NCBI GenBank assembly: GCA_040905715.1
Contig: JBBDRA010000003.1
Location: 199,075-263,074 of the forward strand
Direction: 5' to 3'
Source: Minisyncoccota bacterium
GTDB lineage: Bacteria; Patescibacteriota; Minisyncoccia; Phycocordibacterales; CSBR16-193
DNA length: 64,000 nt
Under the pieces are notes generated by a model, which worked only from the letters and a program-made list of their open reading frames with translations, was not told the origin of the DNA and made no database searches. This document shows positions 10,155 to 60,381 of this stretch, piece after piece. Position 1 is the stretch's first letter, and each line of letters opens with the position of its first letter. The position numbers and the translations under genes were made by a program.

Positions 10155-10292
10155 AGTAATTGTAATATGGTTCCCATACTAGCATCTTTATATACTTTCG
10201 AAATCTTGAAGTGTATGGTTTAATAAACCTACACAACTGAATATTGTTACGACCTAACCCTTAGGAATTGCTCTTGAGGCATGGTCCAAAAA

Positions 10293-10338
10293 CGCTACGA
10301 ACATAGAAAACCCGTCATCAGGGCGTTCGTAGCGTTGC
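10293..10338. promoter_or_regulatory. 12-bp inverted repeat in the divergent intergenic region of the island
   Basis: aacgctacgaac ...22 nt... gttcgtagcgtt. Confidence 0.35.
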
Positions 10339-10434
10339 CAGGGGAAACTCTGGTAGAGGTAACCGAAAGGTGCCTTCCTGGTGGCGGGCTTTGTGTATCT
10401 GCCGCCAGGCGTTACTAACTATTACTATTTTCGT

Positions 10435-11112
10435 ATGGAAGAACAAAATAAAAAATGGTATCAGAAGCCAGTTGGCATAATTGCTTTATTGGTCCTATTT
10501 TTTCCTGTAGGACTTTATTTAATGTGGAAGTACGCTGAGTGGGATAGGAATGTAAAGTGGGTTGTTACGGGGGGTGTTTTAGTGGTTATTATGATTGGTA
10601 CTGTCGCAGGTGAAGTAGACGAACAATCAACCTTGTCAGAGGGAGAAAACCAGGAAGAAAATAAATCGGTTGATGAATCTAACCTCACAACAGAAGAAAA
10701 AGTAACGCGGGCGGCTGAGGAAATCGTAGGTAATCACGACAGTGTCGAGGTAATGGTGTCTGAAGGAGATGCGTTTCTTATATTTGAGGAAGAAACTTTT
10801 TATACCATCGAATCGGCTGTTAGAGACACATATGAGTATTTTGTGAAATGGGGAGAGGAAGCACTTGCCTATGATGAAATCGGTTTTGTTTCTGTTGAGG
10901 CAAAAACGCAATTTACTGATGAAAAAGGTAGAACATCTATGGGCACAATTATTCGTGTCCAGATGAATGAAGAAAACTTTAATGAATTTGAGTGGAAGAA
11001 TCTTGATTTTAGACCTATTCACAATCAGATAGACGAGTACGGGACGTTGTTTGTCCATCCACAGGTCTGGAGAGAGGTAGACATGAACGAAGATGCATAC
11101 CTATCTTTGTAA
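10435..11112 (+). CDS. membrane-anchored hypothetical protein
   Basis: ATG at 10435 (the listed 10381 start is GTG); one N-terminal TM segment, acidic linker. Confidence 0.55.
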   Translation: MEEQNKKWYQKPVGIIALLVLFFPVGLYLMWKYAEWDRNVKWVVTGGVLVVIMIGTVAGEVDEQSTLSEGENQEENKSVDESNLTTEEKVTRAAEEIVGNHDSVEVMVSEGDAFLIFEEETFYTIESAVRDTYEYFVKWGEEALAYDEIGFVSVEAKTQFTDEKGRTSMGTIIRVQMNEENFNEFEWKNLDFRPIHNQIDEYGTLFVHPQVWREVDMNEDAYLSL

Positions 11113-41259: not shown

Positions 41260-41394
41260 ATGTCCTGTGGGTATAGAGACCTCTCAGTACTTCTTTTTTC
41301 TCAGTTTCTATAGTATCGTACGGCGTGGAATACTCTCGTCGAGTACCTATTTGTTCTTCGACACTCTTTCAGTTTCTTGAAAGGAATATGTGCC

Positions 41395-42786
41395 ATGAGC
41401 CAGAACACACTGTTCGACAAGATTTGGAGCGCTCACAGCGTTCGGGTTTTGCCCACTGGGCAGACCCAGCTTTTCATCGGGCTGCATCTCATTCATGAGG
41501 TGACCAGCCCGCAGGCATTCGACATGTTGCGCAAGCGGGAGCTCACGGTTCGCTTTCCGAAGCGAACCTTTGCCACCGTGGATCACATCGTGCCGACCAC
41601 CGAGGAGGGTCGCGAGCGTCCGTTCCTGGACGTCATCGCCGATGATATGCTCACGCATATCGAGCAAAACTGCCGAGAATTTGACATTACTTTCTTCGGC
41701 CTCGGCCACGAGGGGCAAGGCATTGTCCATGTCATTGGCCCGGAGTTGGGACTGACCCAGCCCGGCTTGACCATTGCCTGCGGCGATAGCCATACCTCGA
41801 CGCACGGCGCCTTTGGTGCCATCGCGTTCGGTATCGGCACTACGCAGGTGTTCAACGTCCTGGCAACGCAGTGCCTTTTGCTCAAGAAGCCGAAGGTTCG
41901 GCAGATCAAGGTTAACGGCGAGCTGCCTCCCGGCGTGTTCGCCAAGGACATTATCCTGGCGATCATCGGGAAGCTCGGCGTGAAGGGCGGCATCGGCTAT
42001 GCCTACGAATACACCGGCTCGGCGGTTGATGGGCTGGACATGGAAGGTCGTATGACCATCTGCAATATGTCCATCGAGGGCGGTGCCACCTGCGGGTACA
42101 TCAACCCCGATCAGACGACCGTTGAGTACCTCAAGGGTCGTGCCTTTGTGCCGAAGGGCGCACGGTTCGACCAGGCCGCGAAGCAGTGGCTTGAGCTCAG
42201 CTCGGGGTCTGACGCTGTCTATGACGACGTTGTGGAGATCGACGGCAACTCGCTCTCACCGATGACCACGTGGGGTATCACCCCCGGCCAGGTCGTCGGT
42301 ATGGACGATCCGATTCCGAACGATGCCGACCCTGAGGCTCTTTCTTTCATGGGTCTCACGGTCGGCCAGAGGATCATCGGTACCAAGATCGATGTTGCCT
42401 TCATTGGCTCGTGCACCAACGGTCGCATCAGCGACCTGCGGGAAGCGGCTCGCGCCATCACTGAGCATGGTCTCACGGTGGCCTCGCATGTTACCGCCCT
42501 GGTTGTTCCCGGCTCAGAGTCGGTGCGCAAGCAGGCGGAGACAGAAGGGCTTCATGAGATCTTTCGGAACGCCGGCTTTGAATGGCGTGAAGCCGGGTGC
42601 TCGATGTGCCTGGCTATGAACCCTGACAAGCTCGAAGGGTCGCAGCGTTGTGCCGCTTCGTCAAACCGCAACTTCAAGGGCCGGCAGGGCAGTCCGACCG
42701 GACGCACCCACCTGATGTCGCCGGCGTCTGTTGTTGCCTCGGCTGCGGCCGGGGAGATCGCCTCTCTCCAGCAGCTTGTAGCCTGA
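41395..42786 (+). CDS. leuC: 3-isopropylmalate dehydratase large subunit (aconitase family)
   Basis: full-length LeuC similarity, GDSHT motif; SD aaagga; markedly GC-rich relative to its surroundings. Confidence 0.9.
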
Positions 42787-42822
42787 ATTCCCCGAAACGT
42801 TCAGATAAAAAGGAACAAAGCT

Positions 42823-43431
42823 ATGACTTCACCGGCAGATATGGCAATTACACGGATCGGGGGGAGGGCATTTCACCTTGCCGGCGCTGACGTTGACACC
42901 GACCGGATCATTCCGGCTCGGTACCTCAGGTGCGTGACCTTCGATGGCCTCGAACAGCACGTGTTCGAAGACGACCGAGCGCAGCTGAACGGACAGCATC
43001 CCTTCGATCTTTCTGAGAACATCGGCCGCAGTGTCCTCATCGTGGATGCCAATTTCGGCTGCGGCTCAAGCCGTGAGCACGCCGTCGCCGCGATCCAGCG
43101 GTGGGGTATCAAGGTTATCATCGGCCAGTCGTTCGCCGAGATCTTCCGGGGGAACGCGACGGCCAACGGTTTGGTCTGTGTCGATGTTTCTGAGCAAGAT
43201 CACGCTCGCATTCTACACGAGCTCGGCAAAAAGGATTCTGGGGTTATCATCTACCTCGACACTTTGAGGGCAGAGTTGAAGAGGTCTGCAGAATCGATGG
43301 CGATCACTATGCCTTTCGCCGATCGCGACATGCTCGTGGGCGGCACCTACGACACGACCGCAACCCTGCTCCAGGCCGGCGACCAGATCGAGGAGACCGC
43401 ATCGCGTCTTCCGTACATGGTGACTGATTAG
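42823..43431 (+). CDS. leuD: 3-isopropylmalate dehydratase small subunit
   Basis: LeuD swivel-domain motifs (GCGSSREHA, RIIPARYL). Confidence 0.9.
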   Translation: MTSPADMAITRIGGRAFHLAGADVDTDRIIPARYLRCVTFDGLEQHVFEDDRAQLNGQHPFDLSENIGRSVLIVDANFGCGSSREHAVAAIQRWGIKVIIGQSFAEIFRGNATANGLVCVDVSEQDHARILHELGKKDSGVIIYLDTLRAELKRSAESMAITMPFADRDMLVGGTYDTTATLLQAGDQIEETASRLPYMVTD

Positions 43432-46119: not shown

Positions 46120-46869
46120 ATGAAAAATCGAACACGCATTATAGCAATTCTAGTACTTGTTTTCGCGGTTGGCCTTCTCGGATGGTTGTTTTTTGCCGGG
46201 GCAGGGTCTTCTGGGGGGAATCAAGTGGTTTCAGAAGAGATTCCGTCGGTTGTTGTTTTAGATTTTTATGATCCGTGGGTATCAGCATTAAAGGATCCTG
46301 ACACCGATCCATATCAGAAAGGGTTAGCAGAAGCCCCTATCCTTAGTGAAGAACTGCGAGCAAAACTTGCAGCCGCACAGGAGCGTCCGGAAGGCGAACC
46401 GGATCCGGTTCTGTGTCAGACTGGTGTACCCGGCGGTATTTCAGCCAGACCTATATTTGAAGACGATGAAAGTGCCCAGGTGCTGGTGATGGCGACGAGA
46501 CAAGAATTGCCCGGCCAGGCTGTGGTTACCCTCACGAAACTAAATAACGGATGGTATATTGATGACATTGAGTGTTCTTCAGGAGAAACTGCACCGGAGA
46601 GAGAGTTTAGTTTTGAGAGAGAGGGGTACTTGCTTAAGGATGTGCCGGCACCGCTCGATCCTCAGTATTGGCATATTGTTTTCGAACAAAACAATCAACA
46701 AGGTCACACAGCACCGCTTTTCTTCGGCGCAGAAAGCATGTGTGAAGATGAAAGCGGAGTAGAGTCGGTATGTAACCCTGATCAATTTACAGAAGCTTCA
46801 AAGGTGATGGTTAAGGGAGAAATGTCCGAGACAGGTGTTGAGGTTAAGCGCTTGGAGTTGATCGAGTAA
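46120..46869 (+). CDS. membrane-anchored hypothetical protein
   Basis: N-terminal TM; 249 aa. Confidence 0.55.
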   Translation: MKNRTRIIAILVLVFAVGLLGWLFFAGAGSSGGNQVVSEEIPSVVVLDFYDPWVSALKDPDTDPYQKGLAEAPILSEELRAKLAAAQERPEGEPDPVLCQTGVPGGISARPIFEDDESAQVLVMATRQELPGQAVVTLTKLNNGWYIDDIECSSGETAPEREFSFEREGYLLKDVPAPLDPQYWHIVFEQNNQQGHTAPLFFGAESMCEDESGVESVCNPDQFTEASKVMVKGEMSETGVEVKRLELIE

Positions 46870-46889
46870 ACTTAGGAAAATAATTTTAA

Positions 46890-46918
46890 ATAGCCCACGC
46901 GTAAGTGTGGGCTATTTA
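46890..46918 (+). terminator. hairpin terminator
   Basis: tagcccac gcgtaa gtgggcta then TTTAT. Confidence 0.5.
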
Positions 46919-47075
46919 TCTGTGTCACTATAGTAACTACATGAGGCGAGGGCTTTTGTGGTGTTACATTAATATAGTGAGATTGAGGGCTATACATAAA
47001 AATGATATAGTCAACATCAAAAGAGTACCTTCAGTCAGGTGAACTTTAGTCATTAGCATTTATTAATTGTAAATT

Positions 47076-50000
47076 ATGAGACAGCGTACATATAAAGTAT
47101 TACGAACCACATTTTCATTTATAACGATGCTTGCCATGGTGGCATCACTAACGGCGGGGTCATTTGTCCCGCAGGCGGTGCAGGCACAGGGGGAGGATGA
47201 AGGTGGAGAAAGTGGCTCGGTGACTGGAATCGAGATCACTGAAGGGGGTGATCAAGTGATCGGAGTTGATGAGGAGTCTGATGTTTTAGTTGTGACGTCT
47301 ATTGATAGCAATGGTGATCCGGTTGATGCGGATAAAAAGCTGGATCTAACTTTTGAGTCAAGTTCAGAGAATGGAGAGTTTTCTGGAGCAAATCAAACAA
47401 GTGATAACTGTTCGGGCAACTTCTCAACTGATTATACAAGTCATATATCTACAAACAGTTCTAATAAATCTTTTTGTTACAAAGACAGTACGCCTGGAAC
47501 ACACACAATAACGATAAGTGTAGACGGGGAAGACTGGGAGGCAGAGACAGAGATCACTGTTGAGGAGGCGGGAGACGGAGAAGTGGCTGGAGTTAACGAT
47601 ATTCCCGGTGATGGTGAATATGAATTTCCAAGTACAAACGAAGACAATAAAGAAAAGACTGTTCCCGGACGCGAAGGACAGGACGCTCCGTACGTTGAGT
47701 TGGTCGAGTCGCGTGTCGGTGAGGTTGAGCTCAAGTTCTTGAACAACACGAACTCACTAGCTGAGTTTGAGTATCGAATTGATGGTGAAGAAGTCTCCGG
47801 AGATGATCACCCGGTTGTTATCGGCGACGTTATCTACCCGACTGTTTCCGTTGACGGCCGAGATGAGGAAGACGAGGTGACCGAAACTGAAACGTTCGAA
47901 GCTGATGAGAAAGTGGAGGTCCGTCTAGCGCTCGGAGGTGAGCGGGACTGGGACTTTGATTGGGTGTCTTTTGAAGTTCAGAAAGACTCTGACAGCAACG
48001 AAGACGAGACACTCTCAGTGCCACAGTTGATACAGCCTGAAGACGGTTCGGTAATGCAAAATGTTGAATTTACACAAACTTGGAGTGAAGTAGATGATGC
48101 GGTTGAGTACGAATACCGAAGCTGTAATAACGATCCGGAAGAAGAATCGTGTGATCTAAAGTACGAAGACACCTATACTGATACTGAAAAAACCGTTGAC
48201 GCCGGACAACCGGACAGCGTCTTCTGGTGGCAGGTGCGCGCAGTTGATGATGAGGGAAATACGAGCGACTGGAGCGAGGCATGGAAGCTGGTTATTGAGA
48301 ATACTAATGGTGGTGGAGGATCCTCATCAGGAGATGAAGACACAGAAGACCCTGAGACAGAAGAACTTGCAGACGGCAAGCCGGGAGACAATAGTACATG
48401 GAACGGCCCTATTACCGTTGCCGGAACGTCGACTGATAACGAAGGTGTAAGCCACGTAAACATCTATATCAAAGAAGCTGGTGATGGTGATGTATATGGA
48501 GACGGCTATGGCGATCCGATCAAAACGATCTACAATGATGATAATGATAGCCCATTCGTCTGGGAGACTACTATTGAACCGGAAGAAGGCGGAACGTATG
48601 ACATAAAAGTTTCGGCAGTTGATACGTCCGGAAACGAAGAGAGTAGCGCGTACGCCTACAATGTTACGTATAACAGTGGAGATGAGACCGTGCCGGAGAT
48701 GTCTGACCTTACAATGTATGTTGAGCGGAACGGAAATTATGAAGAGTCGTCCGTTGTTAAGCCGGGCGATAACGTGCGAATTGAAGTAGACGCAACTGAC
48801 GACGGATCAGGAATTGAGGATGTAGAGTTCCGTGTTCAGTCTCAAGACAAGCAGTACGTTGCACTTACGTCTGTAGATAGCGCTGTTGAGGGTGATACGT
48901 ATCGTTTTGAGTACCAGGTGCCAACTGACGGTAAGTACATCAATACGCACAATCCGATGAACGAAGATGATGACGGTCACTTTTATTGGGTGCGGGCGAC
49001 AGATGAAGAAGGAAACTATCACCACGGTATAAGTGATGATTTCACGTTCGACAAGACTCATCCGGAGGTGTTAGTGGTCTCACCGGAAGTGGATGAGTAT
49101 GTAAGTGGAGATGTAGAATTTAAGGCTGAACTTACAGATAATTATAAACTTGCTGATTACCGCGTCATTGTTCACTACAAAGAAGGCGGGGTAAATGACA
49201 GAGTTTACTTTGGAGACTGGACACCGATCAATAATCCGGGAAGTGAGAACACAGTCACTCATAACTGGGACTCGACCGTGGAGGAGAACGGCGAATACCA
49301 CGTACGTATTTTTGCGCGAGATGAGGCGGGGAATACGGCAGAGCATCACGAAACTGAGGATCGGCACTTCCATGTGGATAATACTGACCCAGAAGGAGAG
49401 ATCGAGTATAACGGCGGGGATGTAATTGATAATGTGCGCTACTTGAAATCAATAGAGGACTTTTCATTTGAAGGAACCTTTAGTGACAACATGGAGCTTG
49501 ACCGAACCTCATACGTGGTTTGGGAGGTTGATGAGGAATTCAAAAACCGAAGCCTTTACTGTGGCAACTGGAATGAAAACGCTTCCACCAATGTTGCTCT
49601 TAGCGGTTCAAGCGACACTATTAATGAAGTTGTTAAAGATTGCGGTCCAGCGAAAGACTGGGGTAATGGAAATTACGAGATCGGACATCGTGTTCACGAC
49701 GAAGCAGGCAACTCTATCAGTCTAAACCAGCCGACAGAGAAGTTTGTAATTGACGGTAGTAAGCCGGTTGTTGAAGTTCTTGCTCCTGAAGATGGTCTCG
49801 TAACCAACTCTGATTTCGAGATCGAGATCAAGGGAAGTGATGAAGACTCAGGTCTAAAACAACTTGTTATTAATCTCACCAAGGATGGAAGCCACTACGC
49901 TTCGTGTTTGAACGAGGGCGTGGGCGGTGAGGAAGAGTACACAGCAAGCTGTGCTATAGACGTTGATGATCTTGGAAACGGATCATACGGCTTTAAAACA

Positions 50001-51347
50001 AACGTTCGTGATCGAGCTGATAACCTAAGTAATACGGAAATACAGAGTTTCGAAATTGATATTGATAAGCCAAAGGCGATTATCACCAGTCCAGAGAATG
50101 GATCGGTCATCCCGTCAGATATTGTGGTCGAAGGAGAGGCTAGTGACGATGAGACCGGAATTGATCACGTAAAGTATACAGTGACACAGATCGATGAGAT
50201 CGGAGGAAGCTATGCCGGATCGATCGAAAACGGAGTCGCCGTGTACGACAATTCAGAGAAAACCTTTGAGTTCCCGGTAGATGAACTTGAAACTGGTTTT
50301 TACAGGCTCAAGGTTCAGGCTTTTGACGAAGCAGGTAACTGGAAGTACCACTACGTTGACGTTGAGGTAGATAACACAGAAGATCCGACGACCACTATTG
50401 TAGCGCCGACCGGAATTGTGGGGGCTGTATTTACGGTAAGCGGAAAAGCAAATGCTGATTCAGACGTGGGACTTAATCGAGTATATGTGCAGCTTGTAAA
50501 TCGTCAGGACAATAATCGATATGGTGGTACTACTATTCATCTTATTGGTGAAGGAGAGAGCGCAGACTGGTCACGAGAATATAATGCAAATGAACTTGGC
50601 CTTCCAGACGGTGACTATGCAGCACACGTATCTGTAGTTGATAGAGATGGAAATACCGGTTCAGCTGGCTGGACAGAAAACTTCACAGTAGACAGTACCG
50701 CACCGTCCGGATCGTTTATTCACGAAAATCCTCAAAGCGGGATAGATACAATAGAAGTTGTGATCGAAGAGAACGGTTCGGCCGGACTTGGCCAGCAGCA
50801 GGTGGTAATGCGAAATTCTGAAGGTGTTGTTGTCGGGAACTTCTTCTACAATGTCGAGACCGAAGCTGTTCGGGTTGATGAGATGGACGACGAAGATGTA
50901 AACATTACTTACAGTGGAGATGAGGTTGCAGGCATTATCCAGATCGAATTCGATACAAATGAACTCGAGAACGGCGAGTACAATCTACGCCTTTTCACAA
51001 AGGATCAGGTTGGAAACGGTCAGTCAGCGATCTACGGAACAAGCGTGATCGATAATGGCGAGCCGGAAGCCTTGTTGCAAACCGATAATTCATTTCAAAT
51101 AACCGGTGGGTATAATCCACAGTCTGTGGGTGGTCAGAACAATGGCGAAGGACAAGTGCTTGGTATCCAAACCACCGGCGACCAGGGTCTCTCTGTTGAG
51201 GATATTCAGAAACTCAATGCGATCATTGAATCACTCTATGTTCTGCTTGGTTCACTTGACCAAATGTCAGAGGAAGACCGAGAGGAAACAAGCAAGAAGA
51301 TCAGTGATATCGTGTCTGCTCTAACTGCTATAATAGTTAACAACTAA
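47076..51347 (+). CDS. giant secreted cell-surface protein with multiple bacterial Ig-like/FN3-like domains (1423 aa)
   Basis: signal peptide; recurring V.A.D.AGN and WW.VRAVD.EGN.S.WSE motifs; acidic composition. Confidence 0.8.
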   Translation: MRQRTYKVLRTTFSFITMLAMVASLTAGSFVPQAVQAQGEDEGGESGSVTGIEITEGGDQVIGVDEESDVLVVTSIDSNGDPVDADKKLDLTFESSSENGEFSGANQTSDNCSGNFSTDYTSHISTNSSNKSFCYKDSTPGTHTITISVDGEDWEAETEITVEEAGDGEVAGVNDIPGDGEYEFPSTNEDNKEKTVPGREGQDAPYVELVESRVGEVELKFLNNTNSLAEFEYRIDGEEVSGDDHPVVIGDVIYPTVSVDGRDEEDEVTETETFEADEKVEVRLALGGERDWDFDWVSFEVQKDSDSNEDETLSVPQLIQPEDGSVMQNVEFTQTWSEVDDAVEYEYRSCNNDPEEESCDLKYEDTYTDTEKTVDAGQPDSVFWWQVRAVDDEGNTSDWSEAWKLVIENTNGGGGSSSGDEDTEDPETEELADGKPGDNSTWNGPITVAGTSTDNEGVSHVNIYIKEAGDGDVYGDGYGDPIKTIYNDDNDSPFVWETTIEPEEGGTYDIKVSAVDTSGNEESSAYAYNVTYNSGDETVPEMSDLTMYVERNGNYEESSVVKPGDNVRIEVDATDDGSGIEDVEFRVQSQDKQYVALTSVDSAVEGDTYRFEYQVPTDGKYINTHNPMNEDDDGHFYWVRATDEEGNYHHGISDDFTFDKTHPEVLVVSPEVDEYVSGDVEFKAELTDNYKLADYRVIVHYKEGGVNDRVYFGDWTPINNPGSENTVTHNWDSTVEENGEYHVRIFARDEAGNTAEHHETEDRHFHVDNTDPEGEIEYNGGDVIDNVRYLKSIEDFSFEGTFSDNMELDRTSYVVWEVDEEFKNRSLYCGNWNENASTNVALSGSSDTINEVVKDCGPAKDWGNGNYEIGHRVHDEAGNSISLNQPTEKFVIDGSKPVVEVLAPEDGLVTNSDFEIEIKGSDEDSGLKQLVINLTKDGSHYASCLNEGVGGEEEYTASCAIDVDDLGNGSYGFKTNVRDRADNLSNTEIQSFEIDIDKPKAIITSPENGSVIPSDIVVEGEASDDETGIDHVKYTVTQIDEIGGSYAGSIENGVAVYDNSEKTFEFPVDELETGFYRLKVQAFDEAGNWKYHYVDVEVDNTEDPTTTIVAPTGIVGAVFTVSGKANADSDVGLNRVYVQLVNRQDNNRYGGTTIHLIGEGESADWSREYNANELGLPDGDYAAHVSVVDRDGNTGSAGWTENFTVDSTAPSGSFIHENPQSGIDTIEVVIEENGSAGLGQQQVVMRNSEGVVVGNFFYNVETEAVRVDEMDDEDVNITYSGDEVAGIIQIEFDTNELENGEYNLRLFTKDQVGNGQSAIYGTSVIDNGEPEALLQTDNSFQITGGYNPQSVGGQNNGEGQVLGIQTTGDQGLSVEDIQKLNAIIESLYVLLGSLDQMSEEDREETSKKISDIVSALTAIIVNN

Positions 51348-59223: not shown

Positions 59224-59285
59224 CGTGGTCGTTTTACGGCTTGATATGATAGCATGAATAAAATCATGGTATAGGAAAAGTTTGT

Positions 59286-60248
59286 ATGTATTACTGGAAA
59301 CGAAGTGTGGTTGCGATAGCTATGGTGGCATTAGGGAGTGCGATCATCTTTTTTGCGTCTCAGGAAACCTCTACGGTGGAATTTTCAAGGAGCGAAAGTA
59401 GTGTAGATACCGCCAAAACCCAAGAGGCCGGTACCAGTAGCTCACAACAAGTGAGTGAAGACGAGCTGTTGCCGGACATTAGAGTGTTTGAGCCGCGAGA
59501 CGTAAAAGTTGTCGAGAAGGATGACCGAACGCTGCTTGTTTTTAGTACGATCTATTACAACCAGGGAGAGGGTCCGCTTGAGCTGGTGGCCGACCCGGAT
59601 ACAGCTGATGAAGAAGGGGATGTTGAGCGCAGTGTATTTCAGAACATTTATAATAACGAGGATGAAATACGCCAGGTACAGGTGGGTACGTTCGTGTGGC
59701 ATGGTGAGCATGGCCATTATCACTTCTCTGACTTTGTGGACTTTCGTCTTGAGCCGACTTCAAAAACAACAGATGAACATGGTGTTGCTGCTGATGATAT
59801 CTCTGCGAAAAATAAAGCTACTTTCTGCGTACGTGATGTGAGCCGGGTCTATGCCGGAGTAGAGAGTGCGCCCGATGACGCAATATATCGAGTTTGTGAC
59901 AAGGAGAAACAAGGCGTTTCAGTGGGGTGGGGCGACACCTACTTTTTTGATTATCCGGATCAGGATATTGACGTGACCGATCTGCCGGCCGGAGAATACC
60001 GTTTGGTATTTGAGGGAAATCCCGAACGGAGATTCCGAGAGTCGAATCACGAGAACAATGTAAGCTGGGCTTTGATAGAACTTGACCCTGAGTCACAGAC
60101 AGTAGATGTGCTTGAGCTTGAACCGTCAGATCCACCGGAGGTTGAGCACTTGTATCCGGAGCAGGATTTTGAGAGCGGTGCGTCAGATATTGAGTATATA
60201 AATCAATGGGAAACCGCAAAGAAGCATAGAAATACAGAAAGGGAATAG
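59286..60248 (+). CDS. membrane-anchored lysyl oxidase (LOX)-like copper amine oxidase domain protein
   Basis: WHGEHGHYH (compare the LOX copper site WHSCHQHYH); KATFCVRD, GWGDTYFFDYPDQDIDVTDLPAGEYRL, ESNHENNV align with the LOX catalytic-domain blocks, including the Lys and Tyr that form the LTQ cofactor. Confidence 0.65.
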   Translation: MYYWKRSVVAIAMVALGSAIIFFASQETSTVEFSRSESSVDTAKTQEAGTSSSQQVSEDELLPDIRVFEPRDVKVVEKDDRTLLVFSTIYYNQGEGPLELVADPDTADEEGDVERSVFQNIYNNEDEIRQVQVGTFVWHGEHGHYHFSDFVDFRLEPTSKTTDEHGVAADDISAKNKATFCVRDVSRVYAGVESAPDDAIYRVCDKEKQGVSVGWGDTYFFDYPDQDIDVTDLPAGEYRLVFEGNPERRFRESNHENNVSWALIELDPESQTVDVLELEPSDPPEVEHLYPEQDFESGASDIEYINQWETAKKHRNTERE

Positions 60249-60381
60249 TGCATCAGGCAGGATTTGCCAATAAGAATAAACTAAGCTATAGTAGTAATCC
60301 TACTGGAGCCCCTCCGTACGCGGGGTTTTCTTTTTTACACAGATAGTACGTAGAGATTAGACAAGAAGTTTAAACATTAGT

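Follow-up and report, generated by a model that had tools for sequence, protein, structure and literature searches.

A lysyl oxidase family gene in a Patescibacterial genome and its relatives

Amine oxidation by copper and lysine tyrosylquinone (LTQ) is the established chemistry of the lysyl oxidase (LOX) family, whose animal members hold five disulfides in the catalytic domain. The topaquinone (TPQ) copper amine oxidases (PF01179) share this chemistry in that they also combine Cu with a self-made tyrosine quinone and convert primary amines into aldehydes with release of H2O2 and NH3, but they belong to an unrelated fold and family and use TPQ instead of LTQ. Here, a LOX family gene is described that is located on a 64-kb stretch of DNA from a Patescibacterial genome (contig JBBDRA010000003.1, positions 199,075 to 263,074), the whole of which is referred to as the window (64,000 nucleotides, nt). 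Judged from the sequence and a structure model, its product is probably an anchored, catalytically competent, extracytoplasmic Cu/LTQ amine oxidase with an envelope-type substrate, inherited by vertical descent within its clade.

In prokaryotes, LOX have been described as occurring in "just several species", with a patchy distribution and multiple horizontal gene transfers (PMC4448552; PMC6452851), and a paper from 2019 lists "a few samples from Parcubacteria" (PMC6452851). The only biochemically characterised prokaryotic representative is HTU-LOX from Haloterrigena turkmenica, a protein with a hydrophobic N-terminus that, after removal of this N-terminus, is an active, Cu-dependent amine oxidase sensitive to β-aminopropionitrile (PMC6452851). 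Compared by architecture, the window protein resembles HTU-LOX in that a hydrophobic N-terminus is followed by a linker and then by the LOX domain, although HTU-LOX is archaeal and belongs to another clade.

The lysyl oxidase domain and its predicted active site

In a preliminary description, which was made from the sequence alone, the C-terminal domain of the protein had been aligned with the catalytic domains of animal LOX. Both sequence searches and structure modelling confirm that the window gene encodes a true bacterial member of the lysyl oxidase family. In hmmscan, the protein matched Pfam Lysyl_oxidase (PF01186) at amino acids (aa) 132–270 with 53.8 bits (E 2.6e-14), well past the gathering score of 20.4 bits that served as family cut-off. 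The Pfam scan of the protein revealed no further domain and, at E values up to 10, no match to the TPQ copper amine oxidase family, and none of the NCBIfam models matched. Human LOXL2 (hLOXL2, 5ZE3) was the sole sequence match in the PDB (E 2.9e-7). The AlphaFold2 (AF2) model, which was built on 92 homologues, reaches a predicted template modelling score (pTM) of 0.75 and a predicted local distance difference test score (pLDDT) mostly above 90 over aa 60–290. When it was compared with the PDB by Foldseek, only the two chains of 5ZE3 were found below E 1e-3 (E 4.7e-10, probability 1.0), aligned over 247–251 columns with ~18% identity and a TM score of 0.45–0.47 as normalised to the full 320 aa.

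Thus, the window protein shares with animal LOX and LOXL1–4 the PF01186 domain, the predicted fold, the HxHxH copper site, the LTQ lysine and tyrosine, the GW/CxDxY and QxxD(I/V)T blocks, one disulfide (FC...C) and a predicted location outside the cytoplasm. Apart from the low identity over the fold alignment, it differs by the lack of SRCR domains or a pro-peptide and by having two cysteines (C181 and C204, the only ones in the protein) instead of the five disulfides; neither the pro-peptide or SRCR domains nor the full disulfide set by which the animal LOX/LOXL subfamilies are recognised is hence found. Moreover, it would be tethered by an N-terminal helix, whereas animal LOX is secreted, and it carries an additional conserved tail with the consensus PxVEHxYxEQxF. 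Collagen and elastin, the substrates of the animal enzymes, are absent from the organism.

The catalytic residues that had been proposed in the preliminary description can all be placed by alignment with hLOXL2. These include the copper-site histidines of WHGEHGHYH, the lysine of the KATFCVRD string (aa 177–184, nt 59814–59837) and the LTQ tyrosine within GWGDTYFFDYPDQDIDVTDLPAGEYRL (aa 214–240, nt 59925–60005; see Table 1). Among the 92 homologues, every one of which is PF01186-positive, Y219, D217, W215, G214, Q226 and N92 are invariant. K177, C181 and C204 are each kept in 91 sequences, H144 in 90, H142 and H146 in 89 and H139 in 86. Likewise, a comparison of 80 genomic loci from species-representative genomes found the catalytic residues and the Cys pair in all 47 Patescibacterial and in at least 31 of 33 other bacterial loci. 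Since H142/H144/H146, K177, Y219 and C181/C204 are conserved in 89–92 of the 92 homologues, the alignment indicates purifying selection on the LOX active site. Both the family match and the conservation of the His, Lys and Tyr positions, whose absence would have spoken against the assignment, are therefore present. A "first histidine" has been reported to be absent from bacterial LOX (Grau-Bove et al. 2015). H139 was considered as a speciality of the Patescibacterial clade, which was ruled out because 31 of 33 non-Patescibacterial loci possess it as well.

The N-terminal transmembrane anchor of the preliminary description corresponds to the single strongly hydrophobic stretch of the protein, in which the best 19-residue Kyte-Doolittle window begins at aa 7; such a segment is also present in most of the 92 homologues. 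Because there is no lipobox Cys in the N-terminus, and because the Phe at −3 of the only A-S-Q (Ala-Ser) site would be unfavourable for signal peptidase I, aa 7–25 most plausibly form an uncleaved signal-anchor or transmembrane helix. This would place the LOX domain in an extracytoplasmic location. The residues around the anchor and in the following linker are modelled with pLDDT below 50 (aa 1–43 and 46–50). Behind the catalytic domain, the PxVEHxYxEQxF tail is kept in both the short and the ~410-aa Patescibacterial forms and is well ordered in the AF2 model, with a strand at 285–288 and a block mean pLDDT of 92 for aa 281–290. It is followed by a subclade-specific tail that contains a conserved Ala-Lys and is predicted with pLDDT below 50 at aa 298–320. 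For neither of the two tails is an equivalent known from animal LOX.

Table 1. Features of the LOX gene and its product in the window (nt positions refer to the window).
Feature	aa	nt	Strand	Basis or remark
Lysyl-oxidase-family gene, 320 aa		59286..60248 (including stop codon)	+	ORF list, Pfam PF01186, 92 homologues
Shine-Dalgarno-like AGGA		59273..59276	+	9 nt 5' of ATG 59286; read directly from the sequence
N-terminal hydrophobic segment, SVVAIAMVALGSAIIFFAS	7–25	59304..59360	+	Kyte-Doolittle mean 2.29; preceded by K5 and R6
Low-complexity S/T/E/Q-rich linker, 34 aa	26–59	59361..59462	+	composition, low pLDDT
LOX catalytic domain	60–280	59463..60125	+	beta-rich predicted fold; AF2 and Foldseek
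Copper-site motif WHGEHGHYH (H139, H142, H144, H146)	138–146	59697..59723	+	aligns with hLOXL2 WHDCHRHYH
Predicted LTQ lysine	K177	59814..59816	+	aligns with Lys of hLOXL2 GHKASFC
First half of sole Cys pair	C181	59826..59828	+	aligns with Cys of hLOXL2 FCLED
Second half of Cys pair	C204	59895..59897	+	aligns with Cys of hLOXL2 NYEC
Predicted LTQ tyrosine, in GWGDTY	Y219	59940..59942	+	aligns with Tyr of hLOXL2 CWDMY
Conserved post-domain tail, SDPPEVEHLYPEQD	281–294	60126..60167	+	family consensus P-x-V-E-H-x-Y-x-E-Q-x-F
Subclade-specific C-terminal tail, FESGASDIEYINQWETAKKHRNTERE	295–320	60168..60245	+	common only to P0002 and P0003
Terminator-like hairpin and T-run		60312..60335	+	between LOX stop and BipA start; consensus scan

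Partner genes of the relatives and the proposed function

Most Patescibacterial relatives of the window gene are linked to a second putative oxidoreductase. In ~24 Patescibacterial loci (L011–L018, L020–L028, L030–L036), a GSDH gene (PF07995) is located directly 3' of LOX on the same strand, at a distance of −31 to +79 nt, and in 12 more (L037, L038, L040–L046, L048, L049, L060), LOX and GSDH are fused in a single open reading frame (ORF) of 756–910 aa. A weaker GSDH-like gene lies directly upstream of LOX in L039 and L047, and GSDH is divergently adjacent in L053. None of the 30-odd non-Patescibacterial loci has GSDH beside LOX. These GSDH proteins are closely homologous to pyrroloquinoline quinone (PQQ)-dependent aldose sugar dehydrogenases, i. 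e. 3A9G (E 5e-80), 2ISM, 3DAS and E. coli YliI (2G8S, E 2e-36), with which their HxGGR and HRNPQG blocks can be aligned. As each unfused GSDH has its own N-terminal hydrophobic helix, while a single helix serves both domains in the fusions, LOX and GSDH would both be exposed at the outside of the membrane. Nothing relevant was found in the searchable literature that connects LOX either to the candidate phyla radiation (Patescibacteria) or to sorbosone/aldose (GSDH-type) dehydrogenases. In the fused LOX-GSDH proteins, the LOX domain is flanked by a ~45-aa repeat that occurs roughly three times (aa 48–95, 343–395 and ~405–500 in L046:7665–10121). The repeat follows the pattern G.L.R...kVY.i....kRW......F...G..W..V and has no Pfam match; it may be another wall-binding repeat.

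The second association concerns the region between anchor and LOX domain, for which three architectures can be distinguished. In the first, to which the window protein belongs, an anchor and a short linker precede LOX (~270–320 aa in total). The second type, represented by 45 sequences of ~405–415 aa such as P0007, contains an additional domain of ~150 aa, and the third, with 12–13 sequences, a YceG/MltG region that is detectable with Pfam (P0033, P0036, P0063, P0072, P0074, P0076–P0080 and P0082 are Pfam YceG-positive). The ~150-aa domain is a divergent homologue of the second part of the N-terminal region of the third type (hhalign probability 99.9%, E 1.8e-31). Hence, the linker position is occupied in these relatives by an MltG/YceG-N-like domain of ~150–240 aa, which is not there in the window protein. 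Upon alignment, the YceG matches span only positions 1 to ~140 of the 275 profile positions, and a profile of the N-terminal region aligned with Listeria MltG (4IIW) only at residues 30–126, its LysM-like N-terminal part (E 1.5e-6). Given these limits, the extra domain represents a non-catalytic, presumably glycan-binding half of MltG. That these MltG-LOX fusions act as lytic transglycosylases was ruled out, since only the N-terminal half of the family is matched. Further wall-related neighbours of LOX in relatives are a divergent M23 peptidase gene with PG_binding_1 and an adjacent dcw cluster.

From these observations, we infer the topology, cofactor formation, activity and substrate of the window protein as follows. 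The uncleaved N-terminal helix would tether the enzyme to the cytoplasmic membrane, and the flexible Ser/Thr/Glu-rich linker would keep the catalytic domain outside the cell. There, Cu(II) could be bound by H142, H144 and H146. In the presence of O2, Y219 may then be oxidised to a quinone and cross-linked to K177, which would afford the LTQ cofactor. LTQ in turn would convert primary CH2-NH2 amines into aldehydes with release of NH3 and H2O2. The likeliest substrates would be lysine-type side-chain amines that belong either to the cell itself, in the wall peptides or surface proteins of its envelope, or to a host surface. Envelope amines of this type are favoured because of the MltG-N domain, the coupling to GSDH and the wall-related neighbours in relatives. 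In the clade, the oxidase would normally have a PQQ-type aldose/sorbosone dehydrogenase with a membrane anchor as its neighbour or fusion partner and would often be preceded by an MltG-type N-terminal wall-binding domain, and the window lineage would have retained only the bare anchored oxidase.

Several points weigh against this proposal. The window protein itself has neither a GSDH partner nor an MltG-like domain, so that the cell-wall inference is borrowed from its relatives; BipA is the gene downstream of LOX, and no match to the GSDH hidden Markov model occurs anywhere in the window. Of the five disulfides of the animal catalytic domain, only one is retained. In addition, the choice between an anchor and a cleaved signal peptide was made by eye, and the variable loop beside K177 is modelled less surely than the rest of the domain (block mean pLDDT 75, aa 171–180). 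Finally, LOX chemistry requires O2.

The main rival to the oxidation of envelope amines invokes the same enzyme, but with a broad activity on free amines at the cell surface, such as cadaverine, putrescine, amino sugars or amine antibiotics. Nitrogen supply or detoxification would then be its purpose, and polymer-bound lysines would not be attacked. The lack of a wall-targeting domain in the window protein is compatible with such a role, and the aldehyde/aldose dehydrogenase that lies downstream in relatives would suit a conversion of amine via aldehyde to acid equally well. The Haloterrigena LOX, for which a role in nitrogen availability was proposed by the authors, indeed shows relaxed specificity and accepts many free amines, aminoglycosides and polymyxin (PMC6452851). 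However, the MltG/YceG-type N-terminal domain occurs in more than half of the Patescibacterial homologues and points to peptidoglycan rather than solutes, and the membrane tether would confine the oxidase to the cell envelope. The scavenging of free amines is thus a less likely, albeit serious, explanation. That the LOX fold is catalytically inactive here and that the protein has a structural or binding role at the surface is very improbable. This view could be reconciled with the finding that amine oxidase activity was undetectable in native Haloterrigena cells (PMC6452851), but all Cu-binding and LTQ residues are present and near-invariant across the clade, which is unexpected for a pseudoenzyme.

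Distribution and descent of the gene

All named homologues among the 92 stem from metagenome-assembled genomes (MAGs) of Candidatus Paceibacterota, Patescibacteria or Parcubacteria, and the host genome of the window gene belongs to the Patescibacteria (Paceibacterota). When one genome per GTDB species was scanned, the motif QG[VI]SVGW[GAS]D was found in LOX relatives from 226 genomes. Of these 226, the best ~50 belong almost without exception to the Patescibacteria (Paceibacterota, Colwell-, Giovannoni-, Adler-, Kaiser-, Terry-, Uhr-, Doudna- and Moraniibacteria), and the next relatives, with at most 39% identity, come from Planctomycetota, Verrucomicrobiota, Gammaproteobacteria, Truepera, Chloroflexota and Actinomycetota. 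A search of 1.84 billion representative proteins with a LOX profile yielded 7,732 clusters (50% identity) at E≤1e-3, of which 1,286 were found at E≤1e-30. The LOX domain family, which counts thousands of metagenomic clusters, is not rare, and the published picture of a rare and patchy prokaryotic distribution reflects older sampling.

In a neighbour-joining (NJ) tree of the LOX domain with 200 bootstraps, the Patescibacterial sequences form a clade with a support of 199/200, if the stray loci L050 and L053 are set aside. The window gene groups with L010 (200/200) within one of two major subclades, termed subclade ii, which is recovered in 169/200 replicates. Without the window gene and L010, the remainder of this subclade reaches only 58/200, and the exact position of the window gene within it is unsupported. 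The genomic context agrees between three species, namely the one represented by the window and two others with LOX proteins of 61% and 67% identity. In all three, a DUF3828-like gene is followed by a variable cassette, LOX, BipA, an ion-channel gene (−), a P-type ATPase gene (−) and CitMHS. GIY-YIG and AHSA1-like genes recur as neighbours of LOX, also in distant lineages.

Several TPA (third party annotation) assemblies that are labelled "uncultured Gammaproteobacteria" or "uncultured Candidatus Saccharibacteria" group tightly inside the Paceibacteria-type LOX clade and carry the same gene pair (L038, L040, L041, L045, L046, L048, L049, L011, L012, L016, L022, L024, L027, L030 and L031). The taxonomic labels of these assemblies look unreliable.

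These data bear on the remaining claim of the preliminary description, according to which bacterial LOX homologues are sporadic and usually interpreted as horizontal acquisitions. As a summary of the published surveys, which explain the patchy occurrence of prokaryotic LOX by horizontal transfer (PMC4448552, PMC6452851), this statement is accurate, but it does not apply to the window gene. The phylogeny that had been suggested as a check, here an NJ tree, places the gene in the Patescibacterial clade. Based on the 199/200 clade, the gene order in three species and an ordinary GC content (47.8% for the gene compared with 46.8% for the window, with GC and GC at third codon positions, GC3, both matching the neighbourhood), the window LOX is therefore not a recent horizontal acquisition, but results from largely vertical descent in a Patescibacteria-wide clade. 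With the recurring GIY-YIG and AHSA1 neighbours and the low identity to hLOXL2 as further counter-evidence, a recent import from a eukaryote or another bacterial phylum is extremely improbable, even though the Patescibacteria-labelled L050 and L053 outside the main clade attest to some transfer.

The tree also bears on the missing partner gene. A GSDH neighbour is lacking not only in the window but also in its nearest relatives L010/P0002 and L090/P0003 as well as in the short forms P0010 and P0013. The window protein, P0002 and P0003 share the clade, the N-terminal anchor and the catalytic residues with the LOX-GSDH pairs and fusions (e. g. L014 from Giovannonibacteria, L046, and L044 from Uhrbacteria). 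They have neither the GSDH partner nor the MltG/YceG N-half that is often found there and possess their own C-terminal tail instead. Since both major subclades carry the linkage, the simplest reading is that adjacency to GSDH was secondarily lost in the window lineage, whose tree position is only partly resolved.

Surroundings of the gene and significance

The ORF list places the gene on the + strand with an ATG at 59286 and a TAG at 60246–60248. An identical protein in the database (P0001) has been called from Met13 (59322 instead of 59286) and thus comprises 308 aa; this start would split the hydrophobic anchor in two. The ATG at 59286 is likely the true start, as it is preceded by AGGA at a distance of 9 nt and as the homologue P0002 (61% identity), which has the same charged-then-hydrophobic N-terminus, aligns from residue 1. 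A promoter scan around the gene gave nothing exceeding the shuffle expectation, and LOX may share a transcript with the NUDIX and GIY-YIG genes that lie upstream of it. The hairpin downstream of LOX is weak evidence for a terminator, because the consensus scan found four such sites in the region compared with 1.6 expected. The protein is strongly acidic (68 Asp and Glu versus 28 Lys and Arg), and the MAGs from which its nearest relatives derive bear the name "Lejia", a possible hint at an origin from a saline lake and at a surface proteome like that of halophiles.

Further upstream, a DUF3828-like gene (249 aa) and a gene whose product is a surface protein of 1423 aa containing several bacterial Ig-like domains occupy positions 46120–51347 (+) of the window. 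As a 69%-identical orthologue of the former directly precedes LOX in the relative L090, the ~12 kb between the DUF3828-like gene and LOX behave as a variable cassette. The Ig-domain protein was considered as the equivalent of a 1261-aa fn3 surface protein beside LOX in the closest relative (L001), which would have qualified it as a possible substrate; this idea was rejected, since no homology exists between the two proteins. Two features elsewhere in the window may be mentioned. A LOOT RNA motif (Rfam RF03000), which scores 75.6 bits where the gathering score is 46.4, is present at 10251–10376 (+) and lies just 5' of an ORF at 10381–11112. Genes for the large and small subunits of an aconitase-family enzyme (LeuC/LeuD-like) at 41377–43431 (+) have a GC content of ~58% compared with ~47% for the window, and this stretch is possibly a foreign island.

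On its own, the window gene is one more prokaryotic LOX, whose relatives are already labelled "lysyl oxidase family protein" by NCBI. Such a small, two-cysteine, single-domain enzyme could nevertheless be a tractable model in which to study how LTQ is made, since the animal enzymes have poor solubility and, to our knowledge, only a precursor-state structure of them is available. For the Patescibacteria, LOX is not a sporadic gene but forms a deep, well-supported and largely vertical clade. In a more far-reaching and rather speculative scenario, an anchored LTQ LOX and a PQQ-type dehydrogenase, joined by operon or fusion and often targeted by the N-half of MltG, would constitute a phylum-wide surface oxidation module. 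Conceivably, this module oxidises lysine-type amines of the wall or of an epibiont's host to aldehydes for cross-linking or attachment, and then to acids, with the window gene as a stand-alone, aldehyde-forming derivative. The association of LOX with GSDH, and often with MltG-N, is the more interesting lead than the window gene, which is not part of it. In most members of the clade, LOX is linked to a PQQ-type dehydrogenase and an MltG-type wall-binding domain, which provides a testable hypothesis for the role of bacterial LOX, i. e. the modification of envelope amines.

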